64,000 nt of DNA from an uncultured Ignavibacteria bacterium (GCA_964617645.1 CAZTYE010000013.1:3956-67955); one strand, 5' to 3'; shown: positions 30,138 through 51,067, counted from the first letter of the stretch. Notes: generated from the sequence alone by a model not told the origin. Made by a program: numbers and translations.

Positions 30138-30155
30138 TTGCGTAAAATTTCACAA
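30138..30155. promoter_or_regulatory. Rex-type operator (2 mismatches)
   Basis: TTGCGTAAAATTTCACAA versus consensus TTGTGAA-N4-TTCACAA. Confidence 0.5.
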
Positions 30156-30208
30156 AGATTATCCGATATTTTTCAATAGTAAGATGGGAGTTTTTGTCAT
30201 GTTTGTGC

Positions 30209-30237
30209 TTGACAAGGCTGCGCCCGTTGATTAATTA
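30209..30237 (+). promoter_or_regulatory. Sigma70-type promoter of the HybAB-like operon
   Basis: TTGACA (30209-30214), 17-nt spacer, TAATTA, in an AT-rich intergenic region. Confidence 0.5.
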
Positions 30238-30268
30238 TGCTCCGAGAGATGTTTACGTGCGTCGGTGA

Positions 30269-30286
30269 TTGTGAAAAAAATCACAA
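30269..30286. promoter_or_regulatory. Rex-type operator (1 mismatch; also fits CRP-type TGTGA-N6-TCACA)
   Basis: TTGTGAAAAAAATCACAA between the promoter and the start codon. Confidence 0.7.
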
Positions 30287-30319
30287 TTAAACTACCGGCG
30301 CGCTCCAAATAGACGAGGA

Positions 30320-31228
30320 TTGCCGATGACGAATACTCGACGAGAATTGTTCAAATGGGCAGCCGTCGGCGCGGTAACCGCTGTTGCCGGGCGAGCCGAG
30401 GCCAAGGAAGAGGAATTCCCTCTCGATTGCGCGCAAACGTACGGCGTACTGGTTGATACGGTCGTCTGTATCGGCTGTCGCAAGTGCGAGTGGGCGTGCA
30501 ACAACGAGCACAAACTCTCGAATACCGATCTCAAGACATTTGAAGATCGCACGGTTTTCCGAAAGCATCGCCGGCCGACGGACCAGTCGTATACGGTGGT
30601 CAATGAGTTCCGCAATCCGGCCACTCAAAAGCCGTACACGATGAAGGTCCAGTGCATGCACTGCAACCACCCGGCCTGCGTGTCCGCCTGTATCGTCGGC
30701 GCCTTGACCAAGAGCAATTCCGGCTCGGTGGATTATGATGCCTGGAAATGTATCGGCTGCCGGTATTGCATGGTAGCCTGCCCGTTTCAAGTGCCGGCAT
30801 ACGAGTACAGCGAGGCATTCAAGCCGCGGGTGATGAAATGCACCTTCTGCGCCCACCGCTTGGCCGAAGGCAAAAAGCCGGCGTGTGTGGGCATCTGCCC
30901 CAATGAGGCGTTGACGTTCGGGACCCGGCAGGAATTAATCGAAATCGCCAAAGAGCGGATCAAGATCAAGCCGGATGTTTACTATGACCATGTCTACGGC
31001 GAAACGGAGGTCGGCGGCACCAGCTGGATGTACCTGGCGCCGGTCGAGTTCAAGCACACCGAGCTGCCGACTTTGGGCGAGAAGCCGATTCCCAAGCTAA
31101 CCGAGACGATTCAACACGGCATATTCAAGTCGTTCGTTCCGCCGCTGGCACTTTACGGCTTATTGGGGCTGGTCATGTACTCGCTGCGCGAGAAGGATGA
31201 GAAGGAGTCGCACAATGAGCACGCATGA
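30320..31228 (+). CDS. Tat-exported 4Fe-4S dicluster protein (HybA/HmcB-like)
   Basis: Twin-arginine TRRELFK; Cys clusters CIGCRKCEWAC, CMHCNHPACVSAC, CIGCRYCMVACP and KCTFC...PACVGICP; EVGGTSWMYL; C-terminal TM anchor. Confidence 0.9.
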   Translation: MPMTNTRRELFKWAAVGAVTAVAGRAEAKEEEFPLDCAQTYGVLVDTVVCIGCRKCEWACNNEHKLSNTDLKTFEDRTVFRKHRRPTDQSYTVVNEFRNPATQKPYTMKVQCMHCNHPACVSACIVGALTKSNSGSVDYDAWKCIGCRYCMVACPFQVPAYEYSEAFKPRVMKCTFCAHRLAEGKKPACVGICPNEALTFGTRQELIEIAKERIKIKPDVYYDHVYGETEVGGTSWMYLAPVEFKHTELPTLGEKPIPKLTETIQHGIFKSFVPPLALYGLLGLVMYSLREKDEKESHNEHA

Positions 31229-32468
31229 AATTCCGGCCCCGATTCAGCGCGTTCCGTTTTTCACCAAGGGCACGATTATCCTCTCGATCTTGGCCGGACT
31301 CGGGATTTCCGCCTACATCTATAGATTGCTGTTCGGACTGGAAGCCGCGACCAACCTCGACGATCAATTCCCGTGGGGCATCTGGATTGCGATTGATGTC
31401 GCTTCGGGTGTGGCGCTGGCGGCCGGCGGATTTACCAGCGCGGCACTCGCCGACATTTTTCACAAAGACAAATACCACGTGATCACGCGGCCGGCGCTTT
31501 TGACGGCGATGCTGGGATACACGTTTGTCGTGATCGGCCTGCTTGCGGATCTGGGACGCTATTATAATGTGTGGCACCCGATGCTTCCGAGCATGTGGCA
31601 AGGCAATTCGGTGCTGTTCGAAGTCGGCATGTGCGTGATGGTTTATCTGACCGTGCTGTATGTCGAGTTCCTGCCGATCGTGGCGGAGCGATTTATCGGT
31701 CGTGTCAAACTCCCCGGAATATTGCGCGTTTTCAATAGTCTGGTCGACGGCTGGCTGCGAGTCTGCAAGCAGTTCCTCGGGCGATTCCTGTCGCTGTTCA
31801 TCATTGCCGGTGTGGTGCTCTCGTGTTTGCATCAGTCGTCGCTGGGAACGTTGATGGTGATCGCGCCGACAAAAATGCATCCCCTCTGGTGGTCGCCGAT
31901 CTCACCGCTGATGTTCCTGTTGTCGGCGATTGCCGTCGGTTTTCCGATGGTGATTTTTGAATCACTGGTGGCGTCGCGCTCGTTCAAACTCAAGCCGGAG
32001 ATTCCGGTGCTTTCGTCGATCGCGGCCTACACGCCGATTCTTCTGGGGGTCTACCTCGCCGTGAAGATAGGCGATTTGACGATGCGCGATGCGTGGCCGT
32101 TCCTGTTCGAGGGTTCGCTGCAGTCGTTCATGTTCATGATCGAAATCGGCCTGGGCGTGATCGCGCCGCTGTTGATGCTCGCCAATCGCAAGCTGCGACA
32201 AACGGCGAAGGGGCTGTTCATCTCGGCGTCGCTGGTGATCTTTGGCGTGCTGCTCAATCGCATCAATGTCTTTCTTGTCGCCTACGAACCGCTGTATCCG
32301 CAAACGACATACTTCCCTTCGGTGTTCGAGATCATGGTGACGGTCGGACTGGTCTGCGCATTGGTGCTGGTGTATCGGTTCCTGGTGCTCCATTTCCCGG
32401 TGATTGCGCAACCGGCTCATGAAGTGAAGGCCGACAATCCGTCGCCGGCAATCGTAAAGACGGCTTAG
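31215..32468 (+). CDS. NrfD/PsrC-family membrane subunit (HybB/HmcC-like)
   Basis: TNLDDQFPWGIWIAIDV..GVALAAGGF, DLGRYYN.WHP, SVLFEV..C and LHQSSLG; about 10 TM segments. Confidence 0.9.
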   Translation: MSTHEIPAPIQRVPFFTKGTIILSILAGLGISAYIYRLLFGLEAATNLDDQFPWGIWIAIDVASGVALAAGGFTSAALADIFHKDKYHVITRPALLTAMLGYTFVVIGLLADLGRYYNVWHPMLPSMWQGNSVLFEVGMCVMVYLTVLYVEFLPIVAERFIGRVKLPGILRVFNSLVDGWLRVCKQFLGRFLSLFIIAGVVLSCLHQSSLGTLMVIAPTKMHPLWWSPISPLMFLLSAIAVGFPMVIFESLVASRSFKLKPEIPVLSSIAAYTPILLGVYLAVKIGDLTMRDAWPFLFEGSLQSFMFMIEIGLGVIAPLLMLANRKLRQTAKGLFISASLVIFGVLLNRINVFLVAYEPLYPQTTYFPSVFEIMVTVGLVCALVLVYRFLVLHFPVIAQPAHEVKADNPSPAIVKTA

Positions 32469-32483
32469 GTGGAGGTGGATGAA

Positions 32484-33602
32484 GTGAAGAAATATACATC
32501 GATTGCATTCAATGTCCTCGTAGCGTTGTTGCTCAGCGGATCGATATTCGCGCAGAGTAAGCCGAAGGCGGTCAATTGCAGCGAGTGCCATACGTGCCCG
32601 TCCCCGACAGTGGCGAACCCGTGTTTGAAAGCTTGTCCACGAGCGCAGGCGGTTCACCAAGCAACCAAGCACGAAGTCGCCGATGCGCCGGACTCGATGC
32701 TGCTCGGCGACATCGCGGATTTGTATCAACCGGTGCATTTCAATCACAAGCTGCATGCGTCGATGGCGCAAATGGGCGGTGACTGCGCGACGTGCCATCA
32801 CTTCAGCCCACCGGGAAGAATCCCGCCCTGCAAGGAGTGCCATAGCCCGTCCGGTGAATCGAGCGATCTGCGCAAGCCGAACCTCAAAGGCGCCTATCAC
32901 CGCCAGTGCCTGGCCTGTCACCGCGAATGGAGCCATGAAACGCAGTGCGTGCTTTGTCATATTCCTTCGGAAGGCGGCGCGATTGCGCAGTCGGCCAAGG
33001 ATCCGACGGATATCATCGGCACACCGCACCCGAAAATCGTCGCGCCGGATAAGCGGCTGTACACGACGCCGTACAAGCCGGGACCGATGGTGACTTTTTA
33101 TCATGAAGAACACATTCAGCTTTTCAATCTGCGCTGCGTCGATTGTCACAAGCAGGAGAACTGCGGCTCGTGTCATGACATGAAGCGCGAAGTGAAAATC
33201 GCCAAGACGCAGGAAGAAGTGCACGCGATCTGCAACGATTGCCACAACAAGGACGCCTGCGCCAAGTGCCACGACACCAAGGAACGTTCGGCGTTTTCGC
33301 ATGCCGACACCGGTTGGCCGCTCAGTCGTTTCCATCAGAAGCTTGAGTGCCGCGCGTGTCATCCGACGGGCAAGAAGATTGCGCGCTTGAACAATAACTG
33401 CTCCGGTTGTCACGGCGGTTGGAACCAGGCGAATTTCAAGCATGCAATTGTCGGTTTGCAGCTTGACGAAGTGCATATCGAGCTGGAGTGCAGCGACTGT
33501 CACGAAAACAAGAATTTCGCGGCGACGCCGAAGTGCGACGGTTGTCATGATGACGGCCGCACGCACAAGGATGCGCCGCCGGGCGAATTGATCCGCAAGT
33601 AG
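32484..33602 (+). CDS. Multiheme cytochrome c, cytochrome c3-like, 13 CxxCH
   Basis: Signal peptide; 13 CxxCH counted; c3-type V.F.H..H and AYHRQCLACH; GGAGG RBS before GTG at 32484. Confidence 0.9.
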   Translation: MKKYTSIAFNVLVALLLSGSIFAQSKPKAVNCSECHTCPSPTVANPCLKACPRAQAVHQATKHEVADAPDSMLLGDIADLYQPVHFNHKLHASMAQMGGDCATCHHFSPPGRIPPCKECHSPSGESSDLRKPNLKGAYHRQCLACHREWSHETQCVLCHIPSEGGAIAQSAKDPTDIIGTPHPKIVAPDKRLYTTPYKPGPMVTFYHEEHIQLFNLRCVDCHKQENCGSCHDMKREVKIAKTQEEVHAICNDCHNKDACAKCHDTKERSAFSHADTGWPLSRFHQKLECRACHPTGKKIARLNNNCSGCHGGWNQANFKHAIVGLQLDEVHIELECSDCHENKNFAATPKCDGCHDDGRTHKDAPPGELIRK

Positions 33603-33628
33603 TAACTGACGATAACGACGCGAGTACG

Positions 33629-36015: not shown

Positions 36016-36026
36016 GGGAGGTCACT

Positions 36027-37696
36027 ATGTGGTGCCTAACTCGTGGCATCGGCTTGGTCTTGGCAGCATTGACGCCGGTGTTGAGCAGTGATGCTTCAGC
36101 CCAGACTGAGTCAAAACTGCTGCAAGGCAGAGCTTCTGTGTTATTCACGTTCGTTCCAGTAGTTCAAAGCGGGGCAAACAGCATAAGCGTCGGCGAGCCC
36201 TCGATCGATTCTCTGCTGCAAAAGTTTGGCGTACAGGATATGCGCGCGGTATTCGCGCGACCGGGTGATCCGAAACACCTTGCCGTTTATCAGCGTCTTG
36301 GCATGGATCGAGTTTTTGAAATTCGATTCGACTCAATGAATACAGTGACTTCAGTCGTTGAGGAGTTCGCCCTGAACCAACTGGTCGAGTTCGTGGAAGC
36401 GGTGGGAATTGTTGACGCCTACGACATATCACCGGGAGATGAGAATTTCGCCGATCAATGGTATCACTCGCAGCCGAATGATGTGGACCTGGACTCGCCG
36501 GGTGCATGGGCGTTCGATACGACAATGATTCTGACGAAAATCGCCGTGATTGACGCGGGGATAGACTCGCTGCATCCGGAATTGCGTCCGAATCTCTGGA
36601 AGAACCAAGGAGAATTCATTGGCAATCCGCCATTGCCAACGCAGGACGGGCTGGACAATGACGGAAACGGCTATGTCGACGACATATTTGGGTGGGATAC
36701 AGGGGAGCTTGACGGTGATCCTGTACCGGGTTATCGTCGACTGGGCCAAGACTGCAGCCGGATTGACTGGTTTCACGCGCATGGATCGCGGATCGTTGGT
36801 CCGCTGATGTCGGTCGACAACAACTTCTTGGATATAATTGATCAGAATATTGTGGGTGTCATCTGGCACGGTTCGATCATAAACGTGAAGTGCCTATCGG
36901 ACGCCGGTGCGGCCAGCGCCAATACATTAGCTGCGGGAATCCAATACGCTGCCGATGCCGGAGCGGAGATAGCGAGTATAAGCCGCGGCTATATTGGCTC
37001 GATAGGAACGCTTGGAATGGCTGTTAACTACGCCGACGCGCTCGGCGTTGTCATGGTCGCCGCTGTCTCATACGACACGTCCGCCGAAGGTTATCCGGCA
37101 GGCGACATTCCTTGATCAGCGTCGGCGCGATAAGCCCGAACGGAGCCATAGCGTTTGATCACATCGCATTTGACACTTCTGCAGTCGTGGCGCCTGGATC
37201 TGAAATACTGACAACAGAGGCCCCGGTTGATGTGTGCTTCGAGACCACACACACGGTGCGCGCTGGAACATCGTACGCTACTCCGATGGTCGCCGGTGTG
37301 GCTGGCATAGCGATGGGGCGACGTTGGATGCTGACGAATTCTCGGCCAACGGCGCACGACATTCGTCAGGTCATTTGGAATGCTATTGACGATCAGACTC
37401 ACCCAACGGATCCGCACGGCTTCGATCCGCTTTATGGTCGCGGCCGAGTGAACTTCGAGAAGGCGATCTACGCGGTCAGTCGGGGCGATGTCGACGACAA
37501 TGGCTCTTTGTCAATTGCGGATGCCGTCTACCTAAACAACTGGATTTGGGCGGGCGGTCCGGCTCCGAAGCCGAAGATCGGGGTCGGCGATTGCGATTGC
37601 AGCAGCAACGTGTCGATGAGCGATGTCGTCTATCTTGCCAATTACATCTTCTCCGGCGGACCGCCGCCGAAGATTTGCTTCAATTTCAATTATTAG
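36027..37696 (+). pseudogene. S8 subtilisin-family protease with C-terminal dockerin-like module, frameshifted at ~37111
   Basis: IAVIDAGID (Asp) and HGSRIVG (His) lie in frame 1, which stops at 37115; GTSYATPMVAG (Ser) and the dockerin lie in 37112-37696. One extra base after ATTCC restores YPAGDIPLISVGA. Confidence 0.8.
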
Positions 37697-38746: not shown

Positions 38747-38892
38747 AAACGACCACGATATCGACCTTTTCGATAGATTTTAATGTAGACCTTACTGGTC
38801 GATTCTGCATTTTGTAACCCACTGTCGGGCTGTCAGATAGTTTTCTCAAGATAGTAGACATTAACTTTCTTCAGGGGAATCGAAAATATCCC

Positions 38893-38928
38893 TTGACAAG
38901 CAGACTAATCTTGTTACCTTTTTCACAA
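38893..38928 (+). promoter_or_regulatory. Sigma70 promoter with extended -10 overlapped by a Rex-type operator
   Basis: TTGACA (38893-38898), 16-nt spacer with TG, TACCTT; operator TTGTTACCTTTTTCACAA at 38911-38928. Confidence 0.7.
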
Positions 38929-38969
38929 TCTTAGACGCGCCGCTTAGAGCTATGGCGTTGTGAGGCAAT

Positions 38970-39494
38970 ATGAAACGGATAATGACCGTACTTGTGATAG
39001 GGGCAATCTTCTGGGCGGCTACCGAATCCTTCGCCGGCGAAATTTCCAAAGACAGCACTTTTAGATCCGACACACTGACGGCGCCGCTTCCGGGCTGGAA
39101 AGTCGGAATCGACTCGACCAATATCAAGGATACAACCTCGTTTTTTGTTATCGAGACCCGACACAAGGTTTTCGGGAATTTCCGGCAGGTCGACACGGTC
39201 AGGTTTGGAAGGCAATTCGAGTTGGGTGAAGGCGAAGAAGTGGCGGTGGTGATGGCCTTCAATCCGCACTTGGCGATTTCGACGAAGGGCACGGCGATTG
39301 CGTTTTCGGACACGCTCTGGAATCCGGCGGCGCGAGTGCGCGTTCTCGACAAGAGCGGAAAGGTCATCCAAGAAGGCTGGGCGTTTCACTACACCGACGC
39401 GCCGCACTACCCGCGCAACCACCTGTTTGGATTTCGATTGCTGGCCTACAAAGTAGACTCACAGTTTATCATTCCCCCGGTTGAGAAGAAGTAG
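38970..39494 (+). CDS. Secreted hypothetical protein, possibly ResB-subdomain/DUF2155-like
   Basis: Signal peptide; FNP...NPAARVRV...EGWAF segment recalls a periplasmic region of ResB-type proteins (by memory, not aligned); first gene after the promoter. Confidence 0.55.
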   Translation: MKRIMTVLVIGAIFWAATESFAGEISKDSTFRSDTLTAPLPGWKVGIDSTNIKDTTSFFVIETRHKVFGNFRQVDTVRFGRQFELGEGEEVAVVMAFNPHLAISTKGTAIAFSDTLWNPAARVRVLDKSGKVIQEGWAFHYTDAPHYPRNHLFGFRLLAYKVDSQFIIPPVEKK

Positions 39495-39509
39495 TTATCG
39501 GAGGCCTTC

Positions 39510-42500
39510 GTGCGACACGGACGATGCTTTGGGATCATTGCACACATCATTTTGGGGGTCGGCGCTTTTCTGGCATTTTCATCGTCCGCTCAGGCGGTCA
39601 AGACTTGCTACGATTGCCACCAGAATCTTAAAGCGGCCTTCGAAGCAAAAAAGGTCGTTCACAAGCCGGTAAAGGACAACGACTGCGAGTCGTGTCACAA
39701 ACGTCATGGGTTCGCCAATACTCTAATTCTCGTCGACAATAGTTCGGAACTGTGTTTCACATGCCATGCGGACTTGAAAGAGAAATTCGCGGTTGGGACG
39801 AAGCACGCGCCGATGGAAGTCGGCAAATGCTGGGATTGCCACGAACCGCACGCCGCCGACAAGAAGGGGCTGCTTCGCAATTACGAAGGCGTGATCGACG
39901 ATCCCGGCTCCTGCCTGGCGTGCCACGGCAAGGAACTGGAATCGGCGCTTGACGGAACAGTTCCCCATCCGCCGTTTACGAAACTGGATTGCGCGGCCTG
40001 TCATGATCCACATAACAGCGAGCACGCGGGATTGCTCAAGAAGGACGTCAGTGCGCTTTGCGCCGATTGCCACGATCCGAAGGACAAGAAGACGCTGGCG
40101 GCACATGAAGGCAAAGCGATCGCCGGCTTGGAGTGCGCCGAATGTCACAGCGGCCATTCGACGAACAGCGCGGGGCTGATGTCAGGAAATTCGCATGCGC
40201 CTTTTTCCGAAGGACAATGCGATGTTTGTCATGCGCCGGTGACCGATCCGGCGGCGATTCAGTTCACCGATGGCAAGAAACCGGGAGAACTTTGCGGCGA
40301 ATGCCACAGCGAACAGGTCGACGCAACGGCGTTGGCGATTCCGCATGCCGCGGTGGAGAAGGTCAACTGCGATGCCTGCCACCAGCCGCATTCATCGCGG
40401 CACGGCAAGCTACTGAAGGAAAATCAGGCCAACTTGTGCGGCGAATGCCATGACGATCTTCTGACCGGCGACAAGATGGTTGCGCACGCGCCGGCGATTC
40501 TCGGAGACTGCTCCGGCTGTCATGAAGTTCACGGCTCGAATAAGGAGCATCTGCTCGCCGCAACGGATTCGAGTCTTTGCCTGGGATGCCATGGCGAATT
40601 CGCAGTAAAGCGGGATTCCGCCGAAGTCGTGCATCCCGCGATCGCCGACTGCAATGGTTGTCACGCTCCGCACGAGGGCCACACACAGGCGATCTTGCGC
40701 ACTTCACCGGAAGACGCCTGCCGCAAATGCCATGAACCGTCGGGCGCGGATCGCGCGGCAGAGTCGGTCCACCCGCCGTATCTCAGATCGGATTGCAGCG
40801 CTTGTCATAATTCCCACTTCGGCGACGAGGCGCATCTCGTTAAGGCCGGTGGGAACAAACTTTGCGTCAATTGCCATCCGGAAATCGGGAATCGAACAAC
40901 ATTGGCGGTTCAGCACGCGCCGGCGCAGGAAGATTGCCAAACCTGCCACAGGCCCCACACCGCCGGAAGTGATTTTCTCTTGGCAGCGCCCGAGGGTGAG
41001 TTGTGCGGCCAGTGCCACGACCGGGCCGATTTTAATGGCAACAAGACTTTCGTGCATACGCCGGTACTGAAGGGCGATTGCAGCGGTTGCCACAATCCGC
41101 ACGGCTCGATGAAGGAACATCTGGTCGCCGGTCGTGCGGTGCGGATGTATGTCAACGGGATTCCGATCAGTAAAACACCGGCCCTGGGTGACAAGATCGC
41201 CGACCTTTGCTTCACCTGCCACGATGACCTGAAAGAGAAATTCCGCCAAGGCGTACCGCATACGCCGGTCGAAAGCGGCGATTGCCAGGTATGCCATGAT
41301 CCGCACGGCGGCGATGTCTACGGCATGCTAAAGGACGAGCCGGCCAAGGTTTGCGGGACATGCCATACGATCGACGCGGATTTGGCGACGAAACATGAAA
41401 ACTACGATCTGACGGCCGCGAACTGCCTTGATTGTCACAATCCGCACACGGCTCCGGAAAAGGGACTGATGCGGGCGAACTTGCATCCGCCGTTCGCCGA
41501 AAAGTCTTGTGACGGCTGCCATGAGCGCGGTGCGGACGGCAAGGTTGTCATGGCGGGACCGGAAGCCGAGGTTTGCGGCACTTGTCACGAGGATTTGCTG
41601 GGCCTCGCGAGCAAGAAGTCGCAGCATGGGCCGTTTGCCGCCGGCGAATGCACGGCCTGCCATAGTCCTCATGCGGGCGACGACAAGAAGTTTCTGCTTC
41701 GCGCCGGTAATGATCTGTGCACTAACTGCCACTCCGACATTCATGAACTGGTGAATCAGCCGGTGCAGCACCGCCCGTTTGCGGATGGCGCCTGCGTTGA
41801 CTGCCACGGACCGCATGCGACGGACAATCCGGTATTGACGGTCAAGGCGAAGGAAGGATTCTGCACGAGTTGTCACGAAGACATCAAGAAGGAGCTGGCT
41901 TCCGGCGAAGTCCACGCGCCGACAAAGACCGGCGATTGCACCCAATGCCATCTGCCCCACGCCGGCGCCGCACCAATGCTTCTGGCGAAAGACAAACAAG
42001 CACTCTGCTCGGGATGTCATGATTACACTTCGGTGGCCGTGAAAACAGCGCATGGCGGGTTCGACATTTCCGGCGCCGACTGCCAGAATTGCCATGTCGC
42101 GCACGCCACGAAGCGCGGTGTCAAGGGGCTGCTGCTGCCGAACGCGCACGAGCCGTTCCGCAGCGGCACGTGCGACCAGTGCCACGCCGGGCAAGCGCCT
42201 CTACCGCTGGTTGCCGAGACCAAGGAGTTGTGTCTGACCTGCCACGACGACTTTGCAAAGCAACTTGCGCAGGCCGTGGTGCATGCGCCGATCCTGAGCG
42301 GTGATTGCACCGGTTGTCACGGCCCGCACGTCGGCTTCGGTAAGTCACTTCAGGTTCGCGAAGGATTCAAGGCCTGTGTCACCTGTCACGACTCGCGTGA
42401 GTTTTCCGGCAGCGTCAAACATCCGGTGGCGTTCGAAGATTGCGGCAACTGTCATGATCCGCATGCGGCGCCGAATAAGGGACTTCTAAATACGACGGAT

Positions 42501-42704
42501 ATACAAGGCTTGTGTCTCGGCTGTCATGAAGACGCCAAGAAGTCGCATTTTCATCCGATGGGCGATAGTGTCATTGATCCGCGCACCAAGACGCCGGTGA
42601 ACTGCGTCAGTTGCCACTCGGCACACTCATCCGACTGGCCATCGATGCTGGTTGCCGATAAAAACCGCAAGTTGTGTGTACTGTGCCACGACGTCAGCCA
42701 CTAA
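39510..42704 (+). CDS. Very large periplasmic multiheme cytochrome c, 42 CxxCH
   Basis: Sec signal ending AQA; 42 CxxCH counted, mostly as H.P...CxxCH.PH....LL......CxxCH paired repeats. Confidence 0.93.
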   Translation: MRHGRCFGIIAHIILGVGAFLAFSSSAQAVKTCYDCHQNLKAAFEAKKVVHKPVKDNDCESCHKRHGFANTLILVDNSSELCFTCHADLKEKFAVGTKHAPMEVGKCWDCHEPHAADKKGLLRNYEGVIDDPGSCLACHGKELESALDGTVPHPPFTKLDCAACHDPHNSEHAGLLKKDVSALCADCHDPKDKKTLAAHEGKAIAGLECAECHSGHSTNSAGLMSGNSHAPFSEGQCDVCHAPVTDPAAIQFTDGKKPGELCGECHSEQVDATALAIPHAAVEKVNCDACHQPHSSRHGKLLKENQANLCGECHDDLLTGDKMVAHAPAILGDCSGCHEVHGSNKEHLLAATDSSLCLGCHGEFAVKRDSAEVVHPAIADCNGCHAPHEGHTQAILRTSPEDACRKCHEPSGADRAAESVHPPYLRSDCSACHNSHFGDEAHLVKAGGNKLCVNCHPEIGNRTTLAVQHAPAQEDCQTCHRPHTAGSDFLLAAPEGELCGQCHDRADFNGNKTFVHTPVLKGDCSGCHNPHGSMKEHLVAGRAVRMYVNGIPISKTPALGDKIADLCFTCHDDLKEKFRQGVPHTPVESGDCQVCHDPHGGDVYGMLKDEPAKVCGTCHTIDADLATKHENYDLTAANCLDCHNPHTAPEKGLMRANLHPPFAEKSCDGCHERGADGKVVMAGPEAEVCGTCHEDLLGLASKKSQHGPFAAGECTACHSPHAGDDKKFLLRAGNDLCTNCHSDIHELVNQPVQHRPFADGACVDCHGPHATDNPVLTVKAKEGFCTSCHEDIKKELASGEVHAPTKTGDCTQCHLPHAGAAPMLLAKDKQALCSGCHDYTSVAVKTAHGGFDISGADCQNCHVAHATKRGVKGLLLPNAHEPFRSGTCDQCHAGQAPLPLVAETKELCLTCHDDFAKQLAQAVVHAPILSGDCTGCHGPHVGFGKSLQVREGFKACVTCHDSREFSGSVKHPVAFEDCGNCHDPHAAPNKGLLNTTDIQGLCLGCHEDAKKSHFHPMGDSVIDPRTKTPVNCVSCHSAHSSDWPSMLVADKNRKLCVLCHDVSH

Positions 42705-42723
42705 ATGGACTGAGGGAACTCTG

Positions 42724-43611
42724 ATGATCAGGCACCGACTCTATGCTCCGATTCTTGCCGCGACGATCTTGTTCACTGCCGCATATGCGACGGCGTTGCA
42801 GCTCTACAAGAGCATCAAAGTACTCGACGGTGAGCGGCAATTGGTCAAGCCGACGCAGGTGGTTACGTCGCCCTCCGGCGCCCGCTATGCGGTTGTCGAC
42901 CAGTTTGCCAACCGAATTTATGTCTTCGACATTCCCGATCAACTGGTCTGGGAAGTCGGCACGCTGACGCCGCTGGTGCTGCCGACGTCGGCGTGTTTTG
43001 ACGGCGAAGACGCATTATTGTTCGCGGTGCAAAATCGCAATCAGGTTTATCGAACCCGCAGCGACGAACCGGACAAGTACGACAGCGTAACGACAATCAA
43101 GGACGGCGGAATCCGCAATATCGACGCCATCCGCCGGACGCCGGAGAACCAATATATCGTGCTTGATCGCAAGAATGGACGAGTCGCGCAATTCGATCAC
43201 AAGTGGCGATTCGTGCGCGTAGTCGCCGATCAGGGCCAGGGTCGAGGCAAGCTGTGGGCGCCGGTTGAAGTGGCGGTTTTGCTCGGCGGTGGTTTGGCAA
43301 TTTCGGATGCCGCGAATATGCCGCTGCAGATATTCTCCAGCCAGGGGAAATTCCTCAACTCTGCCGGCTGGAATAATCCGACGCAAGACCGTCAATGGAA
43401 GGGCGGCGCTGTCACGGTGGGATTGGACGAAACGATTTGGGTTGCCGATATGAGTGCGCGCCGGTGGCGGCGTTTCGACCGCGCCGGAGTGGAAGTCAGC
43501 AGTGAGAGCTTCACCCTGCCGCCGATGCATCCGCTGAGCGCGGCATTCACCGCCGATGGCCGGTTAATCGTGGTGGATGAGTTAGGGTCGCTGCACATCT
43601 TCGAACCATAA
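42724..43611 (+). CDS. NHL-repeat beta-propeller protein
   Basis: Signal peptide; repeats PTQVVTSPSG..YAVVD, GKLWAPVEVAV..GG.L.ISD, VTVGLDETIWVAD. Confidence 0.75.
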   Translation: MIRHRLYAPILAATILFTAAYATALQLYKSIKVLDGERQLVKPTQVVTSPSGARYAVVDQFANRIYVFDIPDQLVWEVGTLTPLVLPTSACFDGEDALLFAVQNRNQVYRTRSDEPDKYDSVTTIKDGGIRNIDAIRRTPENQYIVLDRKNGRVAQFDHKWRFVRVVADQGQGRGKLWAPVEVAVLLGGGLAISDAANMPLQIFSSQGKFLNSAGWNNPTQDRQWKGGAVTVGLDETIWVADMSARRWRRFDRAGVEVSSESFTLPPMHPLSAAFTADGRLIVVDELGSLHIFEP

Positions 43612-43625
43612 TTACTGAGGATCTT

Positions 43626-44579
43626 GTGAAACGCATCGCGTCGTTGCTGATCGGAATCACTCTCTGGCCGCTCGTTAACGTGGTCGCGGGCGAATGGCAC
43701 ACCGAGGGCAACCTGCGCTGCGCGGATTGCCATCTATCGCATGCTTCGGGCGAAGAGATCGGCGCCTATGAGGGGCCCTACCTGATCCTGCTCAAGAAAG
43801 ACTCGATCAACGAATTGTGCCTGTCTTGCCACGACGGCAGCGATCTGGCCGCGCCAGATGTGCTGACGCCGGTTGAGATGTACGCCGCGACGAGCGCCGG
43901 CGAGAGCACTGCGGGGCATCTGCAACTTCCCAGCTATGATCACGCTGGCGGGCACAATCTGGGTCTGATCGCGCCGACGCCGCTGCAGTCCGCCGGCAGC
44001 GCCATAGAACTCAGTTGCATCAGTTGTCACGCGGCGCACGGCAATGCCAATTACCGCAATCTGTCGGAAGATCCGGCACGCATCGGCAGCAATCTTTCCG
44101 TTGTTGACGGCATTCAAGTGTTCACCGATCAGAAGCCGTCGCGGCCGCCAAATTCGGTGTCAACGATTGCGGCTTATCAGCGCGACAATGTCGGTTACGT
44201 TTCCGGCCTCGACGAGTGGTGCACATCCTGTCACAATCAGTTGGAGAATAACGCACCGGCTTCAAGTCCTGCGCATTTTGCGGGTCACCCGTCCGGCGTG
44301 GCGCTCAATCAGTTTGTCAGCGAGTATCATGCGGATCCGCAACATTGGATCGGCGGAAGTGGCGAGGGATTTACGCTCGATGGGATTAGCCGGTTGCCGA
44401 TCCTGTCGCCGAGCGCGACGAGTTTCATCGCCGCCCGCACGCCGCAGACATCCGATCGCGTGAGTTGTATCAGTTGCCACCGCGGACACGGCGGCGATCG
44501 GCGAAAGAATCTCCGGTGGCCGGCGGTTGAAGGCGGCGCCACCGCGATGGCCGGATGCCAACAGTGCCATAACAAGTAG
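43626..44579 (+). CDS. OmcS-like hexaheme cytochrome c (paralog 1)
   Basis: 6 CxxCH; mature WHTEGNLRCADCHLSH; GGHNL, YRNL, GLDEWCTSCH and VSCISCHRGH in OmcS order. Confidence 0.75.
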   Translation: MKRIASLLIGITLWPLVNVVAGEWHTEGNLRCADCHLSHASGEEIGAYEGPYLILLKKDSINELCLSCHDGSDLAAPDVLTPVEMYAATSAGESTAGHLQLPSYDHAGGHNLGLIAPTPLQSAGSAIELSCISCHAAHGNANYRNLSEDPARIGSNLSVVDGIQVFTDQKPSRPPNSVSTIAAYQRDNVGYVSGLDEWCTSCHNQLENNAPASSPAHFAGHPSGVALNQFVSEYHADPQHWIGGSGEGFTLDGISRLPILSPSATSFIAARTPQTSDRVSCISCHRGHGGDRRKNLRWPAVEGGATAMAGCQQCHNK

Positions 44580-44586
44580 TGAGCAG

Positions 44587-45681
44587 ATGATGAGTCAGCG
44601 CACAACAGGTGTGAGTTTAGGAGTAGCGTCGCTGTTAATCGCGGGGGCAGCGTTGCTGCTCGCCGATGGCGGCCGGTTCCGCAATTCACCACACGGCTCT
44701 GCCGAAAGCGGCGTGTGGCGAACCGGAGATTATCCTCGCGGAAGCTGCCTGCAATGTCATGGCGCGCACCAAGGAGGCACGCCGGAACCGTTCGGACTAT
44801 TCCAGCCCAATAGCAATGAACTCTGCCTCGGCGCCTCGATGGGCGGCTGCCATGCCGATCAACCGAGCGGTGCGACGGCGGGCTATCCGGCGCAAGAGAC
44901 GGACCGGATGCCGATCGGATCGAGCGACGCCGGTTATTTCGAGTTCAATTCCGGCGGCACACGGATTCCCGGAGTCAGTAATCATGTCCGCTGGCCGGGT
45001 CGTCAGGTTTGGAAGGATCTCGCGTATTCACCGCATAATACCGACCCCGATATGCCGCTTAAGGATTTCTTCGGCGACGGCGACTGCGGAAATTGCCACA
45101 ACATACACGGTGGCGCGGGATCGCACGATTTACTTGATACGACCTACAGCAGCATCGTAGGTTCGCAATTCGGCGCGTGGCCGGACAACTACGAATTGTG
45201 TTTCTCCTGCCACTCGCAATTCGGCCCGGTCGGGATGAACGAAAGCGGCAAACGCATTCGCGACTACTACGACCGCTCGATTAATCCGAGCAACCGCGCG
45301 GGCCATGGTATCGGCGACGGCGGCGGATACGTGCCGTCCGGCGCGCGGCTGTCGTGCTCGGATTGCCACAATCCGCATGGATCGCGTGGGAGTCAAGCAG
45401 GGGGTCCGAACGCGTTCTTGCTCAGCGATCAGCGCCCGGGCTGGCACGGACTCACCGATATTCGCAACGACAACGCTCAGGTTCGCCGATTTTGCTTCGG
45501 TTGCCATGTATCCTCCGATAACCAAGCGGGGGGAACTATCCATGGACTCAATCTGGAGCGGCTTCCCGACGAAGTCGCGGCGCATGAATTCATGGGCACG
45601 ACACATTGCTACGACTGTCACGGACGCGACTATTCGACGTCGAACGGCTTCAATGTTCATAACCCAGCGGAGGGTGAATAA
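44587..45681 (+). CDS. Multiheme cytochrome c, 6 CxxCH plus one CX7CH
   Basis: CLQCH, CLGASMGGCH, CGNCH, CFSCH, CSDCH, CFGCH, CYDCH; hydrophobic N-terminus. Confidence 0.85.
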   Translation: MMSQRTTGVSLGVASLLIAGAALLLADGGRFRNSPHGSAESGVWRTGDYPRGSCLQCHGAHQGGTPEPFGLFQPNSNELCLGASMGGCHADQPSGATAGYPAQETDRMPIGSSDAGYFEFNSGGTRIPGVSNHVRWPGRQVWKDLAYSPHNTDPDMPLKDFFGDGDCGNCHNIHGGAGSHDLLDTTYSSIVGSQFGAWPDNYELCFSCHSQFGPVGMNESGKRIRDYYDRSINPSNRAGHGIGDGGGYVPSGARLSCSDCHNPHGSRGSQAGGPNAFLLSDQRPGWHGLTDIRNDNAQVRRFCFGCHVSSDNQAGGTIHGLNLERLPDEVAAHEFMGTTHCYDCHGRDYSTSNGFNVHNPAEGE

Positions 45682-47381
45682 TGTTGCGGGTCGTATTGGT
45701 GCCGGCGCTTCTGACCATTCTGGCCTGCGACGTTGACGCCGATCGGCTGTACGGGAATCTCAATTTGCTGGGAGAGCACTCGCGACAAGCCGGGGCCGTT
45801 GCTTTCAGCGACAACTCCTCGCAGGCAACGCTCACGCTTAACTACGAAGACGCTCTTTTCGTAAAAAACCGAATGCGGCTCGGACTTCAGGTTTCGCGAC
45901 GCGACTATCCGAATTCGCCGCAGCGGGACCTGAGGCCGATTTTTACGCTCGACCTCAAGAGCTACGGTTATGCACTGAATCTGAGCTACTCCCCGTACCG
46001 GCGGCTGACGACAGACGCGATCGGCGCGAGCACGTACTATTTGTATTCGCGTGATTGGCGCTCCAACCTGGCCCTCAACTACGATCGCTACCCGCCCGTG
46101 AACATCACCTACAACCGGACGCGAAAATTCGACCGCCAGACCCAGCGCCGCTTCGATAGCTCCGGCGAGACGTTTTTGATCGACACCCGCCACGCGGTCG
46201 GTGGCGTTGCGGTGCGCGGGTCTTATGGCCGGGTAACGAGCGAGAATTTTCTGATCGGCGGCTCGAATTCGGTTTCGGAAAACGTCGCGGCGGCAGCGAC
46301 TCTAACCAAGAATTACGACGGCATCGGCTACCTGAACGCGCTCTATTCGTACTATGCCTCGGAGATCGACCGCCGGTCGTTGGCGGTGCGCAATCGCACG
46401 GAGTTTTCGGCGCACACGATCAACGCCCTGTTGTCTTCCGACCGGTTTTATGGACTGACCGCGACGACTACCTATTCCGGGCGCTGGGCGGAGTCACAAA
46501 CGAGCACAATTCGCGCCCAAAACGACAATCACAACGCTACGGCGCAGTTGTCGTTCCTGCCCCTATCGTATTTATCGTTCGATGTCGCGAAATCGTACCA
46601 AACCACCGAAGAAGGCGGCCCGCGGCAAACGGTAGAATTCGTCAGCATCTCCGGCTCCGCATCGCGTTATCTGCGGCAAGGCGTCGACACGCGGTTGGGC
46701 GCCACCCGGACGTTTTTCCAGAAATCAAACAAGTCGCTGGAGAGCGGCGAGGGCGGTTCGGGAGCTTATAATTACGACAACATCTATGCTTCAGTCGGAC
46801 TGACGCCGCTGAATTATGTCCGTACCTATTTCGACGTCTCGGTAGCGCACGATTCAAAGCCGATCTTGAAAACCCAGCGGTATCAGGTCTTTCGTTCTTT
46901 GAATGCGCAGCTTCAACTCAGCCGCCGCATCGAGAGCCGCATCGGCTTTACCGCGGTTTATCAGGGCGCGAACTTGAATTTTGACCAGAGTATCTCGCGA
47001 AACTACAACCTCGGGCTGACGTGGATTCCAACCGGCAATCTTAGCCTGAACGCAAACTACATTCGGACGGAAAGCGCGACCGACATCGCGCTGAGCACCG
47101 ATTCGTGGAACGGCTACGCGTCGTACTCATTCCGGCGCGCTTTCACGCTATTCGTCAACGGCGTTTGGCAGGAACAAAAGACGTCGGCGATATCGCCGGC
47201 GCTGCTACCGTCGGAAGTCAATCGCACTTCGCGGCCGCGGTCGATCAATAGCCAGATTCTGATTTACCTGACGCCGTCAATTACACTCACCGGCGGATAC
47301 TTGTACTCCCTGGTTGAAGTGCTGGGCGGATCGTACACCTTGATCGAGTCCTATCAGTTATCCTTGAATTTTCGGATTTAG
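45681..47381 (+). CDS. Outer-membrane beta-barrel protein (porin of a porin-cytochrome or secretion system)
   Basis: Signal-like N-terminus; alternating amphipathic strands rich in Y/S/T/N; terminal strand SYQLSLNFRI; TAATG coupling to the upstream cytochrome. Confidence 0.7.
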   Translation: MLRVVLVPALLTILACDVDADRLYGNLNLLGEHSRQAGAVAFSDNSSQATLTLNYEDALFVKNRMRLGLQVSRRDYPNSPQRDLRPIFTLDLKSYGYALNLSYSPYRRLTTDAIGASTYYLYSRDWRSNLALNYDRYPPVNITYNRTRKFDRQTQRRFDSSGETFLIDTRHAVGGVAVRGSYGRVTSENFLIGGSNSVSENVAAAATLTKNYDGIGYLNALYSYYASEIDRRSLAVRNRTEFSAHTINALLSSDRFYGLTATTTYSGRWAESQTSTIRAQNDNHNATAQLSFLPLSYLSFDVAKSYQTTEEGGPRQTVEFVSISGSASRYLRQGVDTRLGATRTFFQKSNKSLESGEGGSGAYNYDNIYASVGLTPLNYVRTYFDVSVAHDSKPILKTQRYQVFRSLNAQLQLSRRIESRIGFTAVYQGANLNFDQSISRNYNLGLTWIPTGNLSLNANYIRTESATDIALSTDSWNGYASYSFRRAFTLFVNGVWQEQKTSAISPALLPSEVNRTSRPRSINSQILIYLTPSITLTGGYLYSLVEVLGGSYTLIESYQLSLNFRI

Positions 47382-47396
47382 CAACGGATAAGAGTT

Positions 47397-47981
47397 ATGA
47401 AATCACTGACCCGAATCACACTGCTTTTGACTTTGCTGCCGCTGCTGTCTTGCGGCAGTTATCGGGCGTACACCAATCCCGAAGCCGACTTTGGGTTCTA
47501 CGAGCGCGTCGGTGTCATCCCCTTCGCCAATCTTACCAACGACCGCAATGCGTCGGAGAAGGTGACTTCGGCGTTCGTGATCGAGCTCCTCATCGGGGAC
47601 GCGCTGGAAGTGGCGCCGATGGGCGACGTCTACAAGGCGGCGCGCGCGGTACTTAAAGACGAAAAGACGAATCTGCCCGATCAGTTGACGGGCGAGGAAG
47701 CGCGCGCCCTCGGCGAAGCGGCGCAAGTCCAGGCGCTCTTTGTCGGCGCGGTCCGCGATTACGGCATGGTGCGCTCGGGACAAGAGGAGTTTCCGCTGGT
47801 GTCGGTCAGCGTGCGCTTGATCGACTGCGGCACCGGCAAGGTGGTTTGGACGCACGAAGTGACGCGCAAGGGTGGGCCGAAATTCCCGATCTTCTCGTTC
47901 GGCGAGACGCATACGCTCGGTGACATGACCGCCAAGGTTTGCCGCGAGGTGGCACGAGATTTCCTCGGTAAGGTGCGATAG
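47397..47981 (+). CDS. Lipoprotein, DUF799/GNA1162 (CsgG/PelC/TolB_N-like fold)
   Basis: Lipobox LLS-C; RVGVIPFANLT...ALGEAAQVQALFVGAVRDYG...VSVSVRLID..TGKVVW. Confidence 0.7.
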   Translation: MKSLTRITLLLTLLPLLSCGSYRAYTNPEADFGFYERVGVIPFANLTNDRNASEKVTSAFVIELLIGDALEVAPMGDVYKAARAVLKDEKTNLPDQLTGEEARALGEAAQVQALFVGAVRDYGMVRSGQEEFPLVSVSVRLIDCGTGKVVWTHEVTRKGGPKFPIFSFGETHTLGDMTAKVCREVARDFLGKVR

Positions 47982-47983
47982 CC

Positions 47984-48568
47984 ATGCGTTCGGCGGCGAT
48001 TTTTGTTGTGGTAGCGGTTGTGGCGCTCGCGATGTTGGCCTGCAGCCCGGGAATGGTCAGCAAGCGCTCGGCACGAATCGAGCTGCCGCAGAAGCCCCGC
48101 GTGGCGGTGCTTCCCTTCGAGAATTATTCCGGTGAGGAAGGCGCCGCGACGCGCATTACGGATTACTTCGTTACGCTGATGACGGCCAGCCCGGACTTTG
48201 AACTGATCGAATTCGGCAGTTCATACGAGGCGATGCGCCGACTGCGGATCCGCTCATCGAATTCGATGTCGAGCGAGCAAATCGACAGCCTGGCGGCGAT
48301 TCTGGGCGCCGACGTGCTGTTTTCAGGCACGGTGGTAGAATACAATACTGTCGACAACTCGTATCTCGGCAAAGTCCCGCGCGTGGCGTTCAACGCACGT
48401 GCCCTGGCGACGCGCGAACGGCGCACAGTTTGGTCGGCGGCGGTTAGCGGCCGCGGCGACAAAGGCGAGTTTCTTTTCGGAATTGGCGTAATTCGATCCG
48501 CGGAGAAGCTGTCGGAAAAGCTGGTTGAAGCGGCGGTAAGAGAGTTCGCGGATGAAATTCGCAATTGA
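47984..48568 (+). CDS. Lipoprotein, second DUF799/CsgG/PelC-like paralog
   Basis: Lipobox MLA-C; RVAVLPFENYS...LGADVLFSGTVVEY...VAFNARAL....RTVWSA. Confidence 0.7.
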   Translation: MRSAAIFVVVAVVALAMLACSPGMVSKRSARIELPQKPRVAVLPFENYSGEEGAATRITDYFVTLMTASPDFELIEFGSSYEAMRRLRIRSSNSMSSEQIDSLAAILGADVLFSGTVVEYNTVDNSYLGKVPRVAFNARALATRERRTVWSAAVSGRGDKGEFLFGIGVIRSAEKLSEKLVEAAVREFADEIRN

Positions 48569-49532
48569 TCGCCGGCTGCTACTGCTCGCTATTCTGGTGG
48601 GAGTTACTCTCAGCAGTGTCGCGGTCCTTGCCGAACACCCGGCGCAGCGGATTTCGATAGCCGCGATCGGCGATCAAGACGCCACCGGCAAACAATTGCG
48701 CTCGCCGGTGTCGATTCACTTTGATCGCTACGGCAACGAGGTGTTTGTCGTCGACCCGGGCGGAAAAAAGGTGGTGATCTTCGACCCCGACCTCAACCCC
48801 CGCTTCGAGTTCCAGCATCGGGTGCCGTCGCTTCAGGGCGGACAACTCGAGCCGGGAGAACCCAAGCGTCTCGTGACCAATCGGCACGGCGAGATTCTCC
48901 TGATCGATAATGTCGCGGATTTCATCGACATCCTTGACTTCCGCGGCAGACCCGTTGATCGCATTTATCCCAATCGGCTCCTGGGCGACACGACGCTCAA
49001 AATTCGGGCAGACCTGATCGCTACGGATGAACGGGACAATGTTTATGTATCGATCGACGGAGACCTTCAGGCGGTGCTGGTGCTTGACGGCAATTTGCGG
49101 CTCAAGCGCCGCTTCGGGCAGAAAGGCGACCGGCCGGAAGACTTCAATACAGTAGTTGGGCTTTACGCCAGCGAGGGCAAAATCTACATCGCCGATGTAT
49201 ATGGCGAACCGGCAATTAAGGTCTACGACACCCTCGGTACTTACCTGTTTGGGTTTGCCCGCCATGAGATCGACCCCGGTGATCTTTCGATGGCGCAAGG
49301 CATTGCGGTGCACCGCGACACAGCCGGAATCCAGACGATTTGGGTCACCGATGCTCTGCGGCAAGTCATAAAAGTCTACTCAGACAGTGGAGTTTACATC
49401 GCGACCGTCGGTGGCTTTGGCGAAAAGCCAGGAGAGTTTATGTATCCTTCCGGAATCGCGGTGTCGGAGACCGGCTCGTTCTATATTGTGGAGCGTGGAT
49501 CGGCCCGAATTCAGCGTTTCGACTACCGCTAA
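48552..49532 (+). CDS. NHL-repeat beta-propeller protein
   Basis: LRSPVSIHFD..GNEVFVVD; FGQKGDRPEDF; GGFGEKPGEFMYPSGIAVSETGSFYIVERGSARIQRF. Confidence 0.85.
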   Translation: MKFAIDRRLLLLAILVGVTLSSVAVLAEHPAQRISIAAIGDQDATGKQLRSPVSIHFDRYGNEVFVVDPGGKKVVIFDPDLNPRFEFQHRVPSLQGGQLEPGEPKRLVTNRHGEILLIDNVADFIDILDFRGRPVDRIYPNRLLGDTTLKIRADLIATDERDNVYVSIDGDLQAVLVLDGNLRLKRRFGQKGDRPEDFNTVVGLYASEGKIYIADVYGEPAIKVYDTLGTYLFGFARHEIDPGDLSMAQGIAVHRDTAGIQTIWVTDALRQVIKVYSDSGVYIATVGGFGEKPGEFMYPSGIAVSETGSFYIVERGSARIQRFDYR

Positions 49533-49604
49533 GTTAATGCCACTAACTTACTAAGCATTGCACGAAAATTGACCGCGAAAATCGATTTGGTACGAAGAAT
49601 TTCC

Positions 49605-49640
49605 TTGACAAACAATACGAGATTGCTATCTTTTTCACAA
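49605..49640 (+). promoter_or_regulatory. Sigma70 promoter with extended -10 overlapped by a Rex-type operator
   Basis: TTGACA (49605-49610), 16-nt spacer with TG, TATCTT; operator TTGCTATCTTTTTCACAA at 49623-49640; aligns without gaps to 38891-38930. Confidence 0.7.
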
Positions 49641-49717
49641 ACTTTTGAAGCGCTGAAAGCCTTCATATAAGGAACGAGCCGAATGCACCTGCGAAGAGCC
49701 AAATCGACAAACAGGAT

Positions 49718-49735
49718 TTGTGAAGTTTTTCACAA
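49718..49735. promoter_or_regulatory. Perfect Rex-type operator
   Basis: TTGTGAA-GTTT-TTCACAA. Confidence 0.8.
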
Positions 49736-51032: not shown

Positions 51033-51067
51033 TTCAGAAGTCACGCCTGTTCATAGTCTGCAATTGA

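Follow-up and report, generated by a model that had tools for sequence, protein, structure and literature searches.

Electron-Transport Units of the Window and Their Upstream Sites

The window analysed here is a 64-kb stretch of DNA (64,000 nucleotides) deposited as an uncultured Ignavibacteria bacterium (GCA_964617645.1 CAZTYE010000013.1:3956-67955). It carries three electron-transport units, designated A, B, and C, and the gaps upstream of these units hold five palindromic sites that resemble the operator of the repressor Rex. The window encodes an NrfD-type protein whose closest relatives (70-81% identity) carry the label Candidatus Zixiibacteriota, replaced in some automated submissions by GN15 or "Ignavibacteria". 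Support for an origin in the Fibrobacteres-Chlorobi-Bacteroidetes (FCB) group comes from the window proteins, which include type IX secretion tails (Pfam), and a CarboxypepD-type TonB receptor is also encoded. By these affinities, the host genome is taken to be Zixibacteria-like and a member of the FCB group. The gene map was built from a list of open reading frames (ORFs) and Pfam matches, with an intergenic remainder of 2,958 nt that is AT-rich (41-55% GC). The three units are arranged as follows.

30326..33602, plus strand: unit A, quinone-interacting module (Pfam)
30326-31228, plus strand: twin-arginine (Tat)-signal 4Fe-4S protein, unit A (Pfam)
31197-32468, plus strand: NrfD-type membrane subunit, unit A (Pfam; homologues 70-81% identical labelled Zixibacteria)
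32469-33602, plus strand: cytochrome c with 13 CXXCH motifs, unit A (haem motif count)
38970..49532, plus strand: unit B, giant-cytochrome cluster of 11 tightly packed genes (ORFs, Pfam, haem counts)
49953..52250, plus strand: unit C, two multihaem cytochrome genes (start codon from orthologue alignments; haem counts)
49953-51032, plus strand: first cytochrome of unit C, 6 CXXCH motifs
51123-52250, plus strand: second cytochrome of unit C, 7 CXXCH motifs

The cytochromes encoded in unit B comprise one of 1064 aa with 42 CXXCH motifs and two with six haems each; the cluster further encodes an unknown 174-aa protein, two NHL propellers, two lipoproteins, and a 566-aa protein without a Pfam match, for which an outer-membrane barrel is a guess. 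The entire synteny of this cluster is kept in five metagenome loci (L081, L086, L117, L134, and L141). Orthologue alignments place the true start of unit C at ATG 49953, where the signal peptide MKKLT... begins. An alternative start at ATG 49683, from which the ORF would cover the site at 49718, was rejected as an in-frame extension that is unconserved among orthologues. The first gene of unit C is thereby preceded by a leader of ~310 nt (49641-49952), and the leaders of its orthologues are similarly long (~130-330 nt). Since no Rfam family was found at gathering thresholds anywhere in the window, a riboswitch does not account for these long leaders. The leader also contains an in-frame ATG at 49849 with a strong AAGGAG ribosome-binding site and without a conserved coding sequence.

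A mismatch search of the window with the consensus TTGTGAANNNNTTCACAA located the five sites in three gaps (30031-30325, 38747-38969, and 49533-49952). They are listed below with their associated promoters, their mismatches to this consensus, and their scores on the weight matrix described in the next section.

30138..30155, no strand: putative auxiliary upstream operator TTGCGTAAAATTTCACAA, 2 mismatches, 19.5 bits
30209..30238, plus strand: predicted sigma-70-type promoter of unit A, TTGACA-N18-AATTAT (promoter scan; orthologue conservation)
30269..30286, no strand: main operator TTGTGAAAAAAATCACAA, 1 mismatch, 29.1 bits
38893..38928, plus strand: composite promoter/operator, TTGACA-N16-TACCTT with TTGTTACCTTTTTCACAA (38911-38928), 2 mismatches, 13.5 bits
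49605..49640, plus strand: composite promoter/operator, TTGACA-N16-TATCTT plus TG extension, with TTGCTATCTTTTTCACAA (49623-49640), 3 mismatches, 11.4 bits
49718..49735, no strand: perfect operator TTGTGAAGTTTTTCACAA, 0 mismatches, 30.1 bits

The predicted transcription starts of the three units lie near 30245, 38927, and 49639. Counted from the first of these, the operator at 30269 occupies ~+25 to +42, and it lies 40 nt before the start codon. The site at 30138 lies 131 bp further upstream, ~54 bp upstream of the -35 element. Ahead of unit C, the perfect operator is found at ~+80 within the long leader, 95 bp downstream of the composite site at 49623. The first-pass annotation had described five Rex-type operators in intergenic DNA ahead of respiratory operons, and both the coordinates and the gene map agree with this placement.

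Frequency of the Motif in the Window

The density of these sites was compared with a first-order Markov simulation of the window's own intergenic DNA (2000 runs). Within the 2,958 intergenic nt, five sites with ≤3 mismatches were observed against 0.17 expected, and four with ≤2 mismatches against 0.0175 expected; the observed counts were matched in 0 of the 2000 simulations. The suspicion that the motif is no commoner than in random AT-rich intergenic DNA, against which the first-pass annotation had asked to be checked, therefore fails. Chance similarity has in its favour the AT-rich composition of the gaps and the two weakest sites, which are individually unremarkable. It is nonetheless refuted by the simulations together with the positional conservation over dozens of genomes described below, and its probability is negligible.

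An independent ranking was obtained with a weight matrix trained on 39 orthologous sites from other genomes, with the window left out of training. The five sites occupy matrix ranks 1-5 in the whole 64 kb (30.1, 29.1, 19.5, 13.5, and 11.4 bits), and the sixth position scores 6.2 bits. In random 64-kb sequences, the matrix maximum averages 10.0 bits and reaches 17.3 at the highest. The sites at 38911 and 49623 are thus individually marginal by score and appear to be upheld by position and conservation.

Several further matches were set aside. An extra 3-mismatch hit at 37693 falls on the end of a coding region, scores 2.7 bits, and is probably due to chance. A lone perfect half-site TTGTGAA lies over the GTG start of the 43626 gene of unit B (43624-43641); its other half is absent, the whole scores -0.6 bits, and it too is probably a chance occurrence. 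Several of the 4-mismatch hits in coding DNA arise from the codons of haem-binding motifs within cytochrome genes, as TGY-CAC-AA mimics TCACAA. In such genes, C-x-x-C-H followed by N or K (TGY CAC AA) yields TGTCACAA or TGCCACAA, which mimic the right half-site (for example at 38032, 38269, and 39683).

Conservation and Promoter Geometry at the Quinone-Interacting Module

To follow the operator of unit A across genomes, 80 NrfD loci (L001-L080) were fetched, one genome per species; regulon content was sampled over ~20 kb per genome. A site with ≤2 mismatches is found 36-81 nt before the start of the iron-sulfur (FeS) gene in 41 of the 80 loci, and four further loci have a 3-mismatch site at the corresponding position. 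None of the 19 most distant NrfD orthologues (L061 and L063-L080), which are labelled Planctomycetota, Hydrogenedentota, Eisenbacteria, Myxococcota, and similar, has a site ahead of the FeS gene. The operator is present at the orthologous position in L049, a locus labelled Calditrichota.

The architecture of these upstream regions is also preserved. In 15 aligned regions, the order is fixed: the -35 element TTGACA, kept in all 15, is followed by the -10-like TAnnAT, then by the palindrome, and lastly by GAGGTGA ahead of the start codon. A canonical promoter precedes the operator in 27 of 40 loci, and in all 27 loci with a callable promoter either ~30 nt, the mode, or ~60 nt separate the -10 element from the start of the operator. 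An operator downstream of a conserved sigma-70-type promoter has the geometry expected of a repressor. This placement, together with that of the composite sites of units B and C spanning ~-16 to +2, is of the repression type, in which the operator overlaps or follows the promoter. From this geometry, the site probably acts by repression. Counterparts of the second site at 30138 occur at an offset of ~131-142 bp in five loci (L001, L002, L004, L011, and L020) and are decayed in the close relatives L003, L006, L008, and L009; the 30138 site is accordingly regarded as a putative auxiliary site.

Conservation at the Cytochrome Genes and the Wider Regulon

A second metagenome scan, anchored on the 49953 protein of unit C, returned 77 loci. 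Sites with ≤2 mismatches occur at 0.42/kb in the 1.4 kb upstream of the 49953 orthologues and at 0.011/kb elsewhere in these loci, an enrichment of ~38-fold; of the 38 loci whose upstream sequence is long enough, 20 carry such a site. Strong sites are located 88-241 nt upstream of the orthologue in ten loci (L081, L082, L084, L085, L091, L094, L103, L117, L134, and L138); in those with the closest orthologues (L081, L082, L084, L085, L117, and L134), the distance is 129-241 nt. Ahead of the orthologous NHL-cytochrome pairs of L054 and L020, the promoter-then-operator layout recurs, with a weak upstream site, a TTGAC-type promoter, and a strong palindrome following one another in that order.

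The motif also precedes other genes in the sampled loci. In other Zixibacteria-like genomes, it is found ahead of hbd with an acetate/butyrate kinase gene in L011 (10711) and L020 (13333), ahead of acetyl-CoA hydrolase/transferase genes in L035 (17935) and L043 (17799), and ahead of hemA in L024 (7077). Further instances lie ahead of additional cytochromes, in L057 and at a cytochrome c/cytochrome b fusion in L134, and ahead of TetR-family genes in L048 and L062. Across loci, the motif-bearing genes are enriched in NAD(H)-linked, fermentative, and respiratory functions, as in a Rex regulon. Among known Rex targets, the hbd operon is classical (PMC5367854) and haem synthesis taxon-specific (PMC6391272), and the Zixibacterium RBG-1 is thought to regenerate NAD+ via butyrate-type fermentation (PMC3903129).

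The first-pass annotation had proposed that one putative regulon joins the quinone-interacting module to the "nanowire cluster". The proposal is borne out by the footprint in 41 genomes, the ~38-fold enrichment, and the recurrence of the 38911 site in L147 (see below), and the shared regulon is very probably real.

Composite Sites at the Unit B and Unit C Promoters

The sites at 38911 and 49623 differ in construction from the other three. Both lie on an extended -10 element (TGnTAYCTT), 16 nt after TTGACA, and in the left half of 38911 the TTG serves also as the TG of the extended -10. The surrounding regions (38881-38932 and 49593-49644) form a 52-nt direct repeat of 71% identity, CGAARAATWTCCCTTGACAA...TTGYTAYCTTTTTCACAAWCTT, by which the unit B and unit C promoters are recognized as paralogous cassettes. 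The cassette, TTGAC(A/T)-N-TAYnWTTTTCACAA, has 12 occurrences in the ~1.9 Mb made up of the window and the loci. With the L045 copy left out, all 11 copies with an identified neighbour gene stand ahead of cytochrome or quinone-module genes, and the cassette recurs ahead of cytochrome genes in eight other loci. In L147, whose unknown unit B protein is 53% identical to that of the window, TTGACT-N-TTGTTACCATTTTCACAA stands before the same gene pair as TTGACA-N-TTGTTACCTTTTTCACAA in the window. This is the only locus reaching the orthologous unit B start, and it keeps 17 of the 18 bases of the 38911 site. Ahead of the 49953 orthologue, TTGACA-N-TATCTTTTTCACAA is found in L083, L088/L089, L117, L134, and L141.

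For these two sites alone, an alternative is that they are copies of a promoter cassette, TTGACA-N16-TAYCTTTTTCACAA, in which the conserved TTTCACAA is an initiation-region or sigma-related feature, leaving three operators only. The direct repeat is in keeping with this explanation. Two further points also weigh against five operators: the scores of 13.5 and 11.4 bits lie within the random maxima, and L117, L134, and L141 keep TATCTTTTTCACAA without having a Rex-like left half. The conserved block is, however, the exact canonical right half-site TTCACAA, placed over +1, and the left half reads TTGTTA or TTGCTA in the window, L083, L147, L088, and L042, resembling the clostridial Rex half-site TTGTTAA (PMC5367854). 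Moreover, the cassette is found solely ahead of cytochrome or quinone-module genes that elsewhere have full operators, and the promoters of the FeS operons lack this block after the -10 element. The cassette explanation is consequently a minority possibility, though one with some weight. Because the scores overlap the random maxima and only the right half is canonical in L117, L134, and L141, the label of promoter/half-operator composite is preferred for 38911 and 49623, and binding at them is suggested by position and conservation. The earlier count of five operators therefore holds for 49718, 30269, and 30138, with the other two better described as composites.

Identity of the Regulator

Over 40 orthologous sites, the bases T2 G3 T4 G5 A6 A7 and T12 T13 C14 A15 C16 A17 are near-invariant (A7 in 39 sites, T12 in 36). 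Positions 8-11, at the centre of the motif, are mostly A/T, and positions 1 and 18 are weak. Although these sites were picked with a two-mismatch filter, the tolerated mismatches fall at positions 1 and 18 and not at 7 and 12. The core TGTGAA-W4-TTCACA is that of the Rex box, which has been published as TTGTGAAW4TTCACAA (PMC2883068) or TTGTGAANNNNTTCACAA (PMC6391272). In the weak sites, the left half (TTGTTAC, TTGTTAT, or TTGTTAA) resembles TTGTTAA, the half-site of clostridial Rex boxes, for which the variant TTGTTAANNNNTTAACAA has been published (PMC5367854). Rex binds DNA as a dimer in its NAD+ form and leaves when NADH/NAD+ rises (PMC5355995; PMC2883068).

The principal competitor is a regulator of the CRP/FNR family (TGTGA-N6-TCACA type, like CRP, HcpR, and SdrP) that would sense a cyclic nucleotide, oxygen, nitric oxide, or another ligand and activate or repress the respiratory operons. 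Three points speak for such a protein, the first and the last of which also count against Rex. Its TGTGA-N6-TCACA pentamers and spacing are contained in the motif, a feature that does not discriminate between the two. The FNR-type regulons also group genes of anaerobic respiration and fermentation with hemA. In L040, L046, and L055, the site has a differing geometry, lying just upstream of the -35 element at roughly a class I activator position.

Other features speak for Rex. The bases A7 and T12, outside the CRP/FNR pentamers, are as conserved as the pentamers themselves. The main-group site is found downstream of a consensus TTGACA/-10 promoter and not at -41.5 or -61.5, and the full -35 boxes are unlike those of activator-dependent promoters, which argues against class I/II activation. 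Placing the site at -41.5 would set the transcription start past the conserved ribosome-binding site. No CRP/FNR gene was found in the window (Pfam), nor in the window or the 157 fetched loci by tblastn (E ≤ 0.1) with Escherichia coli CRP and FNR, and the only cyclic nucleotide monophosphate (cNMP)-binding protein of the window (20975-21451) has no DNA-binding domain. A CRP/FNR regulator is thus considered unlikely.

A binder from another family, such as an ArsR/SmtB-type protein or an undescribed factor whose binding box resembles that of Rex through convergence, has also been considered. In support of this possibility, an ArsR-family gene of 113-119 aa separates the site from the FeS gene in L040, L046, L053, and L055, a classical autoregulated layout; in L053, the Rex-like site is positioned between the -35 and -10 elements. 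The ArsR-family genes, each first in an FeS-NrfD-cytochrome operon, are located as follows.

L040 2188-2541: ArsR-family gene
L046 8682-9041: ArsR-family gene
L053 8720-9061: ArsR-family gene
L055 3138-3491: ArsR-family gene
L038 240-563: ArsR-family gene

In L040, L046, L053, and L055, a separate conserved inverted repeat, AGTTnCGAAAnAAnGAAACT, lies between the -10 element and the arsR start and is the likelier ArsR operator, while L038 has the arsR gene without a Rex-like site. In addition, no such gene occurs in the window or in most operator-bearing loci. Given its own inverted repeat and the case of L038, the ArsR protein is probably a second, lineage-specific input and not the binder of the palindrome. 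Binding by a protein of another family is quite improbable.

Against Rex itself stands the search for its gene. With Bacillus subtilis Rex (PDB 2VT2), Calditrichota Rex, and Thermotoga Rex as queries, tblastn (E ≤ 0.1, 157 loci) detected no rex in the window or in ~1.9 Mb of related loci, and no Rex labelled Zixibacteria was present among the protein matches listed. Searches seeded with Thermotoga maritima Rex and Calditrichota Rex gave, among the matches listed, only Thermotogae and Calditrichota. Within the FCB group, Calditrichota, Krumholzibacteria, and Latescibacterota have annotated Rex proteins, and Rex is also among the listed matches from Chloroflexota and Margulisiibacteriota. The Calditrichota protein and B. 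subtilis Rex align over their full lengths. No Rex box, and hence no site for autoregulation, lies ahead of the Calditrichota rex in its gyrB-gyrA-rex locus, which likewise counts against Rex as the regulator.

In these Calditrichota loci (L158-L160), rex is immediately downstream of gyrB-gyrA, a synteny that could help to locate rex in related phyla.

Rex is nevertheless somewhat favoured as the repressor. The first-pass annotation had preferred Rex and named CRP/FNR as the alternative; that preference is strengthened by A7/T12, the promoter geometry, the hbd, ack/buk, CoA-transferase, and hemA co-members, and the TTGTTA half-sites, while the identity of the regulator stays at the level of inference.

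Relationship of the Cytochromes to OmcS

A 14-orthologue profile of the 49953 protein has OmcS (PDB 6EF8) as its sole significant match among solved structures (E = 6e-10, ~190 residues). The six-haem protein of unit B encoded at 43626 gives a weak OmcS match as a single sequence (E = 8e-6), and six CXXCH motifs are present in both proteins. As single sequences, the 49953 and 51123 proteins had no match in PDB searches. The homology to OmcS is distant. Of the first-pass name "nanowire cluster", what can be retained is a distant-homology label for proteins with six haem motifs; as a statement that these genes encode a nanowire, it is weakly supported.

Proposed Mechanism

It is proposed that the five sites are targets of one dimeric repressor, most likely Rex, that co-controls units A, B, and C; on balance, this reading is favoured. 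Each unit would be transcribed from a strong sigma-70-type promoter. The repressor would bind on the -10/+1 region at 38911 and 49623 and 25-95 nt downstream in the leader at 30269 and 49718, with 30138 as an auxiliary upstream site, and once bound it would prevent transcription from initiating or from elongating. Cooperativity may exist between the paired sites ahead of unit C (49623/49718, 95 bp apart) and ahead of unit A (30138/30269, 131 bp apart), though this is speculative. At low NADH/NAD+, the Rex dimer would occupy the sites, leaving as NADH accumulates. Its release would derepress quinol oxidation and the outward cytochrome chain, as well as the NADH-consuming fermentation genes in sister genomes. 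The sites, their conservation, the promoter geometry, and the set of genes under the motif are shown by the sequences, whereas the part played by Rex, NADH as its signal, and occupancy of the two weak composite sites are inferences.

A broader formulation is that, in Zixibacteria and apparently neighbouring FCB lineages, an NADH-sensing Rex gates the whole outward electron path together with the butyrate-type fermentation genes. Such a path would take in the module for quinol oxidation, the giant cytochrome of the periplasm along with its putative outer-membrane components, and the cytochromes resembling OmcS. The chances of this formulation are judged to be even. If it is true, extracellular electron transfer would be a redox overflow valve chosen by transcription, and the operators would give OmcS-family genes their first defined switch at the transcriptional level outside Geobacter.

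Comparison With Known Systems and Significance

Rex regulons are familiar, with predictions in many phyla, and the kind of regulon described here is not new. The 18-bp TTGTGAA-W4-TTCACAA is the same as in the Gram-positive regulons of Streptomyces coelicolor, S. avermitilis, Staphylococcus aureus, and B. subtilis (PMC2883068; PMC6391272; PMC5355995). As is proposed here, Gram-positive Rex acts by repression on respiratory and NADH-linked targets and occasionally on haem synthesis genes (PMC6391272). The present case differs in that the host belongs to an uncultured Gram-negative FCB phylum and the regulon is recognized from its operators. The targets also differ, being an NrfD-type quinol module and multihaem/OmcS-like clusters here, whereas cytochrome bd, NADH dehydrogenase, and fermentative dehydrogenases are controlled in the Gram-positive systems. 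In Clostridium acetobutylicum and C. pasteurianum, Rex targets crt-bcd-etf-hbd (PMC5367854), to which the boxes ahead of hbd-ack/buk in L011 and L020 are comparable. In contrast to the clostridial regulons, the dominant half-site here is TTGTGAA and not TTGTTAA, and no solvent-production genes are included.

A link between Rex and presumed extracellular-electron-transfer cytochromes has likewise been drawn in an Fe(III)-reducing actinobacterium of the Anaerosomatales, in which a Rex-type gene lies within a multihaem cluster (PMC9686372). In that Gram-positive organism, the link is by gene adjacency only and no operators are described, whereas conserved operators are found here and the regulator gene is unlinked. 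CRP/FNR sites (TGTGA-N6-TCACA) share with the present motif the same pentamers and spacing and have respiratory targets; the related CooA site is TGTCR-N6-YGACR (PMC6085454). They differ from the present sites, in which the half-site extends to 6-7 conserved bases (TGTGAA) and is placed on or downstream of consensus promoters instead of at activator positions.

Genes for omcS-type cytochromes in Geobacter are regulated via long leaders and riboswitches. A long leader (~310 nt) likewise precedes the six-haem OmcS-related gene here, although in this case the leader holds a palindrome and has no Rfam match. In the literature searched, no paper linking Zixibacteria and Rex was found. What appears to be new is the host phylum, the target set (an NrfD-type quinol module with very large and OmcS-like cytochromes), and the depth of the conserved footprint.

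How uncultured bacteria of sediment and groundwater control the expression of costly multihaem cytochromes is poorly understood. Here, a single conserved operator connects a quinol module, a cluster with a 42-haem-motif cytochrome, OmcS-like genes, and fermentation genes, which suggests a testable rule: expression would track the NADH/NAD+ balance rather than, or besides, the presence of an acceptor. The practical yield includes a weight matrix for mining the Zixibacteria regulon, a means of predicting which cytochrome clusters cooperate, and compact promoter-operator cassettes. Should Rex not be the regulator, the interest of a conserved regulon of this size, governed by an unknown factor, would be no smaller.

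Other Features of the Window

The remaining features of the window lie outside the three electron-transport units. A tRNA search of the window found none. On the minus strand at 54003-58660, a PAAR-motif protein (370 aa) adjoins a 1177-aa protein without a Pfam match. A signalling cluster at 15393-23222 encodes a PAS-rich hybrid histidine kinase, an ATP/ADP-translocase-like transporter, a HEAT-repeat protein, the stand-alone cNMP-binding protein mentioned above, a receiver-PP2C phosphatase, and a single-domain receiver. Between units A and B, at 35907-37696, an S8 subtilase is encoded in two overlapping frames (35907-37115 and 37112-37696), for which a frameshift or a sequencing error is possible; by eye, its C-terminal part contains dockerin-like repeats, which the 1109-aa protein encoded at 26701-30030 also has at its end. 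Near the start of the window, at 1283-9073, the gene for a bacterial alpha-2-macroglobulin (1819 aa) is directly followed by that for a PBP1C-type penicillin-binding protein, a known paired arrangement.

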